Shown here: positions 47 to 59,352 of the stretch, piece by piece | Layout: each line of letters begins with the position of its first letter | Position numbering within the stretch: the stretch's first letter is position 1 | Assembly: GCF_016903815.1 (NCBI RefSeq) | Contig: NZ_CP069973.1 | Reading direction: 5' to 3' (one strand) | Length of the DNA: 64,000 bases | From: Escherichia coli | GTDB taxonomy: Bacteria; Pseudomonadota; Gammaproteobacteria; Enterobacterales; Enterobacteriaceae | Translations under genes and position numbers: made by a program | Notes under the pieces: generated by a model | Seen by the model: the letters and a program-made list of their open reading frames with translations, nothing else | The model's database searches: none | Told to the model about the DNA's origin: nothing

Positions 47-1039
47 TTACTCGCGGAACAGCGCTTCGATATTCAGCCCCTGCGTTTGCAGGATTTCGCG
101 CAAACGGCGCAGGCCTTCAACCTGAATCTGGCGAACACGTTCACGGGTGAGGCCAATTTCACGACCTACATCTTCCAGTGTTGCCGCTTCGTACCCCAGC
201 AAACCGAATCGACGTGCCAGTACTTCACGCTGTTTGGCGTTCAGCTCGAACAGCCATTTGACGATGCTCTGCTTCATATCGTCATCTTGCGTGGTATCTT
301 CCGGACCGTTCTCTTTTTCATCGGCCAGGATGTCCAGCAACGCTTTTTCGGAATCACCACCCAGCGGGGTGTCTACCGAGGTAATGCGCTCGTTAAGACG
401 AAGCATACGGCTGACGTCATCAACTGGCTTATCCAGTTGCTCTGCGATCTCTTCCGCACTTGGTTCGTGGTCCAGTTTATGGGACAACTCGCGTGCGGTT
501 CGCAGGTAAACGTTCAGCTCCTTTACGATGTGAATCGGCAAACGAATAGTACGGGTTTGGTTCATAATCGCCCGTTCGATCGTCTGGCGAATCCACCAGG
601 TTGCGTATGTTGAGAAGCGGAAACCACGTTCCGGGTCAAACTTCTCTACCGCGCGGATCAGCCCCAGGTTGCCCTCTTCGATCAGGTCCAGCAACGCCAG
701 ACCACGATTGCCATAACGGCGGGCAATTTTTACCACCAGACGCAAGTTACTCTCGATCATCCGGCGGCGGGAGGCAACATCTCCACGCAGTGCGCGACGC
801 GCAAAATAAACTTCTTCTTCGGCCGTTAACAGTGGTGAATAACCAATCTCACCAAGGTAAAGCTGAGTCGCGTCCAACACACGCTGTGTGGCTCCCTGCG
901 ATAACAGTTCCTCTTCGGCCAAATCGTTATCACTGGGTTCCTCTTCTACTAAGGCCTTTTCGTCAAAAACCTCAACTCCGTTCTCATCAAATTCCGCATC
1001 TTCATTTAAATCATGAACTTTCAGCGTATTCTGACTCAT
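47..1039 (-). CDS. rpoS: RNA polymerase sigma factor RpoS (sigma-38)
   Basis: Track ORF 47..1075; protein recognised as RpoS. Start trimmed to internal ATG ([17 protein letters not shown]...), giving 330 aa. Codon 33 is GAG (Glu). Confidence 0.97.
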
Positions 1040-1101: not shown

Positions 1102-2241
1102 TTATCGCTGCGGCAAATAACGCAGCGGGTTTACGGATTTCCCCTTGTAACGAATTTCAAAATGCAAGCGTGTTGAACTGGTTCCGGTGCTACCCATGGT
1201 TGCTATTTTTTGCCCCGCCTTCACTTCTTGTTGTTCCCGGACCAGCATTGTGTCGTTATGGGCGTAGGCACTCAGGTAATCATCATTATGTTTGATGATA
1301 ATCAGATTACCGTAGCCGCGCAGCGCGTTACCGGCATAAACAACGCGGCCATCTGCGGTCGCGATAATTGCCTGTCCTTTGCTGCCTGCGATATCAATCC
1401 CCTTGTTGCCCCCCTCAGAAGCGCCAAAGGTTTCGATCACTTTGCCCTCAGTCGGCCAGCGCCAGGTGGAGATAGGCGTACTGGTTGATGTACTGCTGAC
1501 AGTCGGCTCGGTTGTGCTTGCTGTTGGCACCGTTACAGGCGCTGTGACCGTGGTCGCAGTTGGCTTGTTGTTCGGCAACATTTTGTTAGCACTCTGTTCA
1601 CCCGAAGACTCAGAATACGTAATTGTCGGTTGCGACGCAACAGCAACGGTGGAATTTTGTGCAGGCTTGATCACAACTCCTTGCTCTGCTGCGTCGGCCT
1701 GGGTAATGGCATTTCCGCCAGTGATTGGCGTACCGGAAGCATTACCCACCTGCAAGGTCTGACCAACGTTCAGCGCGTATGGTGCCTGAATATTGTTGCG
1801 CTGAGCAAGGTCACGGAAATCGTTGCCAGTAATCCAGGCGATATAGAAAAGTGTGTCGCCTTTTTTCACGGTATAGGTACTGCCGCTATAACTGCCTTTC
1901 GGAATGTTCCCATACTGACGGTTATAGACGATGCGTCCGTTTTCCATCTGTACCGGCTGCTGAGCTACTGGCTGCACCGGCTGGATTTGCGGTTGTTGAG
2001 TGGCCTGAATTTGTGGCTGCTGTACCGGCTGAATTTGCGGTTGCTGAGCTGTAGACGTCGTTCCCATTTTCGGCGGCGGCGTAATCAACATACCAGAATT
2101 GGTATTTGCAGGCGCATTGCCATTAACGGAGCTGACCGGTGCCGGTGGATTTGAAGTGTCAGAACAGCCTGCCAGCCATAGCGAAACCAGTGACAAAGCC
2201 GCAATGCGGCGAACGGTGAATTTTGGGCTTCCCGCGCTCAT
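1102..2241 (-). CDS. nlpD: Murein hydrolase activator lipoprotein NlpD (LysM + M23 peptidase-like domain)
   Basis: 379-aa ORF with lipoprotein signal (LAGCS), Q/P-rich repeat linker and C-terminal M23-like domain; sits immediately upstream of rpoS. Confidence 0.95.
1948..2046 (-). repeat. Imperfect in-frame tandem repeat in nlpD encoding (QQPQIQP[V/A])n
   Basis: Protein segment [33 protein letters not shown]; DNA shows repeated ccggctg[g/a]atttg[c/t]gg units. Coordinates derived from codon positions. Confidence 0.6.
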
Positions 2242-20617: not shown

Positions 20618-20770
20618 CTACTTCTTCGATTCGTAAGCGAGAACTGCCTTAAACTCCATACCACGTTCTCTGATACTCAACTCACACAACGAGTCGCCTA
20701 CCATCAGCGTGAATCCCAGTACTGTACAACACAGTACGATGATTGCCACAAGGGCATATTTTGTCAGCAT
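20618..20770 (-). CDS. Hok/Gef-family type I toxin (HokE-like small membrane peptide)
   Basis: 50-codon ORF not in the track (too short): [53 protein letters not shown] with GGAGG 6 nt upstream; single N-terminal TM helix; conserved Hok C-terminus (LCE...AVLAYE). Translated by hand. Confidence 0.8.
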
Positions 20771-21034
20771 GTCTTGCCTCCCTGCAAAGAAGAGACTAAC
20801 ATTCGAATTGCTTAGGTTCGAACGCTGGCCTCAGGTTGATAGAAATATCGCCTGGGGCTTTTGTCCATCTGGAACCTCGCGAATGCTTAACGCCAGACAG
20901 CCTCAAGCACCCAACGCCATTCTATACCTGATAATTCTTCCAGCGGCGTTCACGTTTAAAATCAGGAATGCTGCTCGCAAAATAAAAACGCCCCCATCAT
21001 TTCTGACAGAGGCGTTTAATTTATCCGGCAATAT

Positions 21035-38902: not shown

Positions 38903-39236
38903 TGGTTTATTCCCGCTGGTGCGGGGAACTCATCAGTGATATCCAACATTGCGGAGCTAAACGCGGTTTATCCCCGCTGGCGCGGGGAACTCTAATATCC
39001 CTGGCGATAATCAACCGGCTTACTCGGTTTATCCCCGCTGGCGCGGGGAACTCGAGAGCGAGGGGAGATTCCGGCAGGGCGTGCACGGTTTATCCCCGCT
39101 GGCGCGGGGAACTCGCGGGTATGCTCCGCTCCGTGTTCGACAAACTCGGTTTATCCCCGCTGGCGCGGGGAACTCAAGGTCGCGGGGACGCCACGGGCAG
39201 TCAATGTCGGTTTATCCCCGCTGGCGCGGGGAACTC
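38903..39236 (-). CRISPR. Second type I-E CRISPR array: 6 repeats (first degenerate), 5 spacers of 32 bp
   Basis: Repeat cggtttatccccgctggcgcggggaactc at 61-bp period, starting ~38903 (degenerate tggtttattcccgctggtgcggggaactc), 38964, 39025, 39086, 39147, 39208. AT-rich leader on the queE side. Confidence 0.95.
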
Positions 39237-39574
39237 ACTAAACATAACCTATTATTAATTATTGATTTTTTAAGTCAGTCACAATCTACCAACTTAACAG
39301 AAACACACAAACAACACATCCATTATGTTAAAGAGCACTTAATTCATTGATTGAAAAGCCAAATATTTAAAGTAATTCTATACCGACTAAAATCCACCAA
39401 ACTCCGACGTAATAATTTTCACTCCAACGAAAAATTAACGCCACAGAATTTGTAGAAAATGATAATGATTAGTCCAGGATGGGCAAAATGGAGGTTTTTT
39501 AGAGGCGACAAAGAATATAAATGAGTAGAAGTCTTTACAGGTTCCACCCATTTATAACGCTTATAAATGTGTAA
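39237..39574 (-). promoter_or_regulatory. Probable CRISPR leader (AT-rich) for the second array
   Basis: About 340 bp AT-rich between the newest repeat and the queE stop; same repeat orientation as the cas-adjacent array. Confidence 0.55.
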
Positions 39575-58941: not shown

Positions 58942-58986
58942 AAAGCAACCTCAATAAGAAAAACTGCCGCGAAGGATAGCAGGAAT

Positions 58987-59352
58987 AAAAAAAGGGAGCA
59001 CTGTATTCACAGTGCTCCCGGTTCGTTTCGCAGCATTCCAGCTACTTTTGTTGCTCCCTGCTCATCCTTGACAACTTTTCCTCTGGCCTTGCGGCCAATC
59101 GTTCATCCTGAACTATTGCTTCCTGCTCACACCACCCCGATGTGATACTTCATCCTGAAGTGTCCCTGGCCTTCCTGACCCACCGAATCATCCTGACCGG
59201 TTCTCATTCTCCATCCTGGAGGTGTCCTTTAACGCGTCCTGCGTCATCCTCTTCGCTTCATCCAGAAGCCTTTCCCTGAAACACCATCCTGGTGTGTCCT
59301 TCAGAAGTGTCATCATCCTGATGTTCACTTCGTTGTCTGACTCCCTGTCGAC
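58987..59352 (-). ncRNA. csrB: CsrB small RNA (CsrA-sequestering sRNA)
   Basis: About 365-nt non-coding region on the minus strand carrying about 18 GGA motifs, many as CAGGAUG (plus-strand catcctg). 3' terminator hairpin gggagcactg...cagtgctccc plus U-run at ~58987..59019. 5' end approximate. Confidence 0.85.

Follow-up and report, generated by a model that had tools for sequence, protein, structure and literature searches.

Coding VNTR or minisatellite repeats of bacterial envelope and surface proteins consist of units arrayed head to tail, with a period divisible by three, and their copy number varies between strains. Their indels end in short direct repeats, deletions and duplications occur as reciprocal products, and the encoded peptide is a low-complexity spacer. 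The repeat in nlpD of Escherichia coli described here resembles them on each of these points, and all four class features that were tested (copies above chance, frame kept, strain variation, endpoints in homology) are found in it. It departs from typical coding VNTRs in that its units are decayed, its instability is low and its alleles are few. Phase-variable contingency loci likewise carry a repeat in an envelope-protein gene that is changed by slippage. In contrast to these loci, the nlpD repeat contains no homopolymer and no units of 2-7 nt, its mutation rate is evidently low, and its periods of 24 and 9 bp keep the reading frame and so allow no on/off switching; neither expression switching nor high instability is found. 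The nlpD repeat is thus an ordinary low-rate coding polymorphism, slow and not hypermutable.

Two further systems invite comparison. Lpp is a length-defined periplasmic tether made of a rigid coiled coil. By analogy, the length of the NlpD lipoprotein segment could determine how far the protein reaches from the outer membrane towards the peptidoglycan, although the NlpD linker, unlike the coiled coil of Lpp, is predicted to be disordered. To our knowledge, no length-dependent phenotype of the NlpD linker has been reported. In Pseudomonas fluorescens, nlpD carries a mutational hotspot, C565T in codon 189, that lies in the rpoS promoter, is transcription-dependent and destroys NlpD (PMC11838912). 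The E. coli locus shares with it recurrent parallel mutation in nlpD upstream of rpoS; unlike this single-base hotspot, the E. coli changes are repeat-mediated in-frame indels at least 340 nt from the promoter, and they preserve NlpD.

NlpD itself is composed of a signal sequence, an N-terminal linker, a LysM domain, a second linker and a degenerate LytM domain (Tsang et al. 2017, PMC5533458). Both linkers are disordered by DISOPRED prediction, the LytM active site of the E. coli K-12 protein is degenerate (non-catalytic), and the protein activates AmiC; constructs with S27D or a swapped DsbA signal identify residue 26 as the acylated cysteine (PMC5533458). Neither an nlpD VNTR/MLVA locus nor a 48-bp deletion in nlpD was found in the literature searched, the coverage of which is incomplete, so that an earlier description is possible. 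The nlpD repeat is also absent from the E. coli VNTR/MLVA typing loci in that literature.

The nlpD locus and its repeat array

The stretch of E. coli DNA that was analysed (the window; contig NZ_CP069973.1) is 64,000 nt long and starts with the gene order rpoS-nlpD-pcm-surE-truD-ispF-ispD-ftsB, every gene being on the minus strand, with a gap of 62 nt between nlpD and rpoS. Features of the locus are collected in Table 1. The predicted nlpD product has the domain order of its class, namely a lipobox signal peptide, LysM and then a C-terminal LytM/M23 domain; it is 99% identical to NlpD of E. coli K-12, and NlpD is the RefSeq product name at identical loci. Over 301 nt, the gene matches that of E. 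coli strains 7/2 and CUVET16-819 with 100% identity, while identity to K-12 MG1655 is 98.0%; the strain is therefore different from K-12. RefSeq/PGAP uses an internal start of nlpD (window 2197-2241), which gives a product of 364 residues, or 348 in strains with the 48-bp deletion, and the same annotation was found at the homologous loci L001, L002 and L008-L014. Since the literature starts from the upstream ATG (379 residues), annotated lengths differ from the published residue numbering. In OkiPb01695 the CDS is annotated 6 nt shorter; a second indel was considered and rejected, as the difference comes from an alternative annotated start codon. An antisense ORF at 1630-2154 (+), which overlaps the repeat, was judged spurious because the opposite strand is occupied there by a conserved annotated gene.

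Table 1. Features of the nlpD-rpoS region, in window coordinates
Feature	Position	Strand	Details and basis
rpoS CDS, downstream neighbour	47..1039	(-)	330 codons + stop; ORF 47-1075, annotated start MSQNTLKV at 1039; RefSeq homologous loci
nlpD CDS, murein hydrolase activator lipoprotein NlpD	1102..2241	(-)	379 codons + stop; ORF list, translation, RefSeq annotation, Pfam
LytM / Peptidase_M23 domain	1126..1407	(-)	residues 279-372; Pfam PF01551, E=4.6e-33
Inferred main rpoS promoter, in nlpD	1606..1640	(-)	-35-like TTGCGT 1640-1635, -10-like TATTCT 1617-1612, start near 1606
LysM peptidoglycan-binding domain	1747..1875	(-)	residues 123-165; Pfam PF01476, E=2.7e-12
N-terminal tether (linker 1), lipid anchor to LysM	1897..2163	(-)	about codons 27-115; domain map, DISOPRED in PMC5533458
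Tandem repeat array	1948..2046	(-)	nlpD codons 66-98; U1 2046-2023, U2 2022-1999, U3 1998-1975
Partial copy QQPVQ, after U3	1948..1962	(-)	
Partial copy QPVA, after U3	1963..1974	(-)	
12-bp direct repeat CAGCCGGTACAG, copy 2, array end	1948..1959	(-)	gene nt 283-294
Nested 9-bp tandem CAGCCRGTR x2 (CAGCCGGTG CAGCCAGTA)	1966..1983	(-)	encodes QPV QPV; allele alignments
11-bp direct repeat CAACCGCAAAT, copy 2, in U3	1985..1995	(-)	gene nt 247-257
12-bp direct repeat CAGCCGGTACAG, copy 1, U1/U2 boundary	2020..2031	(-)	gene nt 211-222
11-bp direct repeat CAACCGCAAAT, copy 1, in U1	2033..2043	(-)	gene nt 199-209
Signal peptide with lipobox LAGC (residues 23-26)	2164..2241	(-)	codons 1-26; lipidated Cys = codon 26

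The repeat forms the middle of the predicted disordered tether between the outer-membrane lipid anchor and the LysM domain. The array reads QQPQIQPV (U1), QQPQIQAT (U2), QQPQIQPV (U3), QPVA and QQPVQ, the middle unit closing in AT and the other units in PV. An in-frame tandem repeat had been proposed here in the initial annotation, and exact analysis bears it out: Tandem Repeats Finder (TRF) reports positions 1971-2047 with a period of 24, 3.2 copies, 71% matches and a score of 85, above threshold. The score was never reached in 300 codon shuffles of the whole gene (maximum 50), of the linker alone (maximum 48) or of the 33 repeat codons alone (maximum 81), so the repeat is real and its Q/P-rich composition alone is insufficient to produce it. 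Only three arrays in the 64-kb window score 50 or more; the other two are the putative CRISPR array described below and a 15-bp doublet.

The unit size of about 24 bp that had been given for the repeat agrees with the period found, but the units are too diverged to be called near-identical, as they had been: U1 and U2 share 17 of 24 bases, U1 and U3 share 21, and U2 and U3 only 15 (63-88% DNA identity). NlpD of E. fergusonii has an identical three-unit layout. This divergence between units, together with the same three units in E. fergusonii, indicates that the array is old and that slippage is slow. The longest exact direct repeats that remain are CAGCCGGTACAG (12 bp, copies spaced by 72 bp) and CAACCGCAAAT (11 bp, copies spaced by 48 bp). 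Among the E. coli alleles sampled, the repeat has five polymorphic nucleotide positions, and all of them are synonymous. No RNA family was found by Rfam in or near the repeat. Directly 5' of it, codon 65 (Ala, window 2049-2047) occurs as GCT, GCG, GCC and GCA among E. coli alleles.

Length alleles among complete genomes

We searched 5,426 complete RefSeq E. coli genomes, 5,420 of which contain the region; the other six give no match to the queried part of nlpD, which is present twice in one genome. In 59 genomes sampled at even intervals, all matches were of standard length. Length variants were found in at least 74 of the 5,420 genomes (1.4%), the three-unit form being kept in 98.6%; these counts rest on BLAST summaries and junction queries rather than on full allele extraction, and rare classes were possibly missed. 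The linker therefore does vary in length across E. coli genomes. The slippage-prone length polymorphism that had been suggested from the repeat exists, with all changes in frame and junctions in direct repeats, but it is rare.

The commonest variant lacks 48 bp; no fewer than 61 genomes carry it, its backgrounds comprise five or more nlpD haplotypes, and its junction is of two types. A 43-nt query specific for the first junction (type A), which is unable to seed on normal alleles, matched 57 genomes; two extra type-A-like alleles have additional SNPs (H388-H389), and two genomes (PEC145 and PEC411) have the second junction (type B). The remaining classes are small. Seven genomes, from cattle and STEC isolates, lack 9 bp; four have gained 9 bp, in two versions that differ in sequence; one (PapRG-04-4) has gained 48 bp and so has five units; and one (Z142-6), the weakest match in the survey, lacks 72 bp. 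Both singletons, the 72-bp loss and the 48-bp gain, could be assembly errors. Queries built from hypothetical alleles with 24 bp lost or gained found none in the 5,420 complete genomes, and a junction query for a 72-bp gain found no match in complete genomes either.

Sources beyond the complete genomes extend the series. A protein cluster of 363 residues with 191 member sequences matches the 48-bp deletion allele. A perfect 72-bp duplication is present in a metagenome-derived E. coli assembly (L016, GCA_044690665.1), and a seven-unit allele in an Escherichia relative with 93% nucleotide identity (L015) has arisen from a 72-nt duplication (TRF period 72, 2.5 copies, 96% matches). All observed indels (-72, -48, -9, +9, +48 and +72) are divisible by three and keep the frame, and annotation treats the variant genes as intact nlpD.

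Whole-query summaries proved unreliable for counting indel alleles, as megablast variously bridges the gap, splits the match or overlaps its pieces; the numbers of matches with less than 80% coverage (46, 63 and 66 across queries) are accordingly not variant counts. The junction-specific queries were 38-43 nt long, so that normal alleles offer no 28-mer seed. With one mismatch, the query for the second 48-bp deletion junction picked up a further 325 normal alleles of the window type, owing to the CCGGTG in U3 of that haplotype; only the two exact matches were counted.

Junctions, recurrence and tether length

Every indel lies inside the array, and every examined junction falls in a direct repeat of 7-12 bp or in the 9-bp tandem. 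The type A 48-bp deletion and the 48-bp duplication are reciprocal products with the crossover at the 11-bp repeat, whereas the 72-bp deletion of Z142-6 and the 72-bp duplication of the metagenome-derived assembly are reciprocal products with the crossover at the 12-bp repeat. The type B 48-bp deletion has its junction in the 7-bp GTGCAGC, and the 9-bp alleles have gained or lost one copy of the 9-bp tandem. Such junctions are the classic mark left when short direct repeats undergo slipped-strand mispairing or unequal exchange, and from them we infer that one of these processes was at work.

The 48-bp deletion arose repeatedly, on different haplotypes. The allele of EC4115 (O157:H7) differs from that of the normal-length O157:H7 strain Z1833 at only one of 1,289 aligned sites in nlpD and its flanks, the junction column, but from other alleles with the same deletion at 6-12 sites. 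PEC145, which also carries the deletion, is one site away from K-12, and ECCWS199, AMSHJX01/ESBL15 and PK8566 represent further distinct backgrounds. About 28 of the 57 junction matches belong to the O157:H7 group of EC4115, TW14359, SS17, SS52 and RM6067W, and much of the count for this allele is therefore clonal inheritance, with independent events numbering on the order of ten.

These observations are very probably best explained by a slowly slipping minisatellite in a tolerant NlpD tether, whose rare length alleles are near-neutral. The array would be an old, partly decayed in-frame minisatellite in the Q/P-rich middle of a disordered tether, with a 24-bp periodicity that creates exact direct repeats of 7-12 bp spaced 9, 48 or 72 bp apart. 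At times, these repeats would misalign in replication or recombination, and 9, 48 or 72 bp would be deleted or duplicated. Because all these periods are multiples of three, the frame would be kept and the length of the tether alone altered, by between minus 24 and plus 24 residues against a spacer of 75 residues between the lipidated Cys and the NGRIVY motif. A tether that tolerates such changes would allow rare, probably near-neutral alleles to persist, one of which became fixed in an O157:H7 sublineage.

Comparison between genera bears on this tolerance. The repeat segment is the only part of NlpD that is strongly variable in length among 22 enterobacterial proteins and in an alignment of nine that includes the 48-bp deletion alleles, with the exception of one protein (P0030) described below. 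The distance from Cys to NGRIVY is 75 residues in E. coli and varies between 57 (Citrobacter freundii) and 80 residues across wild-type genera. With 59 residues, the 48-bp deletion allele stands beside C. freundii and within the natural range, which argues for tolerance; the alleles with 48 or 72 bp gained and the seven-unit allele have 91-101 residues, above the range of wild-type genera. The main septal targeting determinant of NlpD is LysM and not the linker (PMC5533458). We infer that the length alleles are functionally neutral. Counting against a purely passive spacer, a construct with the signal peptide and N-terminal linker alone shows weak midcell enrichment (PMC5533458), and the restriction of SNPs in the repeat to synonymous sites suggests some constraint on the peptide, so that the linker may be more than a passive spacer. 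An AlphaFold2 model of NlpD built from the 22-sequence alignment has a mean pLDDT of 33.5, but it is low in the M23 domain as well and is not taken as evidence of disorder.

The recurrence of the 48-bp deletion could reflect selection rather than mutation bias alone. Tether length might be selected in some lineages if its reach sets the timing of AmiC activation by LytM at the septum, the deletion then being a parallel adaptation. Its presence on at least five haplotypes, its fixation in a successful O157:H7 sublineage, the purely synonymous variation in the repeat and the seven units carried by other Escherichia lineages are compatible with such tuning, as is the proposal of Tsang et al. that the distance between outer-membrane-anchored NlpD and peptidoglycan may regulate the protein (PMC5533458). 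The same authors, however, consider that two long linkers make it unlikely that anchoring alone limits reach (PMC5533458). Moreover, variants are infrequent overall, the carriers outside O157 are scattered small groups, and the commonest allele is exactly what the long direct repeat with the closest spacing would be expected to produce, a sign of mutation bias. On balance, adaptive tuning seems unlikely to us, and a slowly slipping repeat in a tolerant tether remains the preferred reading.

Whatever the cause, the repeat pinpoints a single site at which NlpD changes in length, both within E. coli and between enterobacterial genera, by a repeat-mediated route. It provides a natural allelic series of one, three, five and seven units that is usable for testing the effect of tether length in NlpD; Tsang et al. 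(2017) did not settle whether the moment at which anchored NlpD reaches septal peptidoglycan depends on the length of its tether. The 48-bp deletion is also an easily scored marker present in the O157:H7 genomes of the EC4115/TW14359/SS17 group.

Some NlpD proteins in the comparison differ in other ways. In P0055, the NlpD of Salmonella bongori, an unrelated stretch of equal length (NHTAAKNGNDDAADTATSAANSTCSAP) takes the place of the conserved ITPPPKMG... with which the Q/P segment otherwise begins, which suggests two frameshifts, the second compensating for the first, or else a sequencing error. In P0087, P0045 and P0092 the first 81-85% of NlpD, at 100% identity, is fused to other domains, Sigma70_r4 in P0087 and the UbiD-family PF01977 and PF20696 in P0045 and P0092. 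These look like natural deletions that join nlpD to rpoS or to genes beyond it, i.e., rpoS-loss alleles.

The rpoS promoter and other features of the window

The major promoter of rpoS is internal to nlpD and precedes the rpoS start codon by 567 nt (PMC8545128; bioRxiv 10.1101/2023.11.09.566509). Counted from the ATG at 1039, this distance puts the start site near window position 1606. The promoter position in Table 1 rests on the published distance together with hexamers read by eye; a consensus promoter scan of 1000-2450 called no promoter. The repeat had been thought to lie within the stretch that carries the rpoS promoter and long leader. This idea has to be corrected, for the repeat precedes the inferred start site by 342-440 nt and belongs neither to the core promoter nor to the 567-nt leader; it is present only in nlpD-rpoS read-through mRNA.

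Read-through transcripts of nlpD and rpoS are established from K-12 work. From the gene order and the 62-nt gap, the repeat is expected to be part of them, and its length might in this way, or through its position in the promoter and leader region, alter rpoS expression. Clade 8 O157:H7 strains, the sequenced members of which carry the 48-bp deletion, have less rpoS mRNA than strains of clade 2 (array, -1.7-fold; qRT-PCR, -2.99; PMC2858043), but the tie between deletion and low rpoS mRNA is a correlation only, and the two clades differ at many other loci. As the repeat is well upstream of the -35/-10 region and the leader, and in-frame indels are expected to cause neither polarity nor premature termination, an effect of repeat length on rpoS expression is very unlikely. 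A causal link from the 48-bp deletion to the lower rpoS mRNA of clade 8 is correspondingly improbable. We would also be surprised if the loss of these 16 residues in the TW14359/EC4115 group (clade 8) and in unrelated lineages were non-neutral, that is, if a shorter tether or an altered co-transcript changed septal amidase activation, the envelope or the RpoS level and so perhaps added to low rpoS expression.

That the length variants are artefacts of sequencing or assembling a repetitive stretch is hardly credible: the alleles with 72 bp lost and with 48 or 72 bp gained each come from a single assembly, the last of them metagenome-derived, but the array is only 99 bp long and fits well inside single reads, an identical 48-bp deletion is shared by about 28 O157:H7 genomes (EC4115, TW14359, SS17 and SS52 among them) that were produced in many laboratories and on many platforms, every variant keeps the frame and has its junction at a direct repeat, and the 363-residue protein cluster with its 191 members gives independent support.

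Other observations concern the promoter region. P0030, a 340-aa protein from a Logan assembly, is an E. coli NlpD whose second linker is 39 residues short, the gap falling between VAVAS and TTEPT; the deletion corresponds to about 1513-1629 in the window, covers the rpoS promoter region and would remove rpoSp. A palindrome of the form ACCT-N3-AGGT (ACCTTGCAGGT on the minus strand) is found at window 1748-1758, without overlap with the repeat; some 145 nt separate it from the inferred rpoS start downstream. A motif of this kind has been put forward as the site at which MqsA binds upstream of rpoS.

Elsewhere in the window, a tandem array at 39024-39237 with a period of 61, 3.5 copies and a consensus with CGGTTTATCCCCGCTGGCGCGGGGAAC looks like a short type I-E CRISPR array. 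A match to the sok antitoxin RNA at 20755-20912 (-) (Rfam RF01794, 111.7 bits) implies a chromosomal toxin-antitoxin locus of the hok/sok type. A full-length CsrB small RNA (RF00018, 382.9 bits) is located at 58984-59343 (-).
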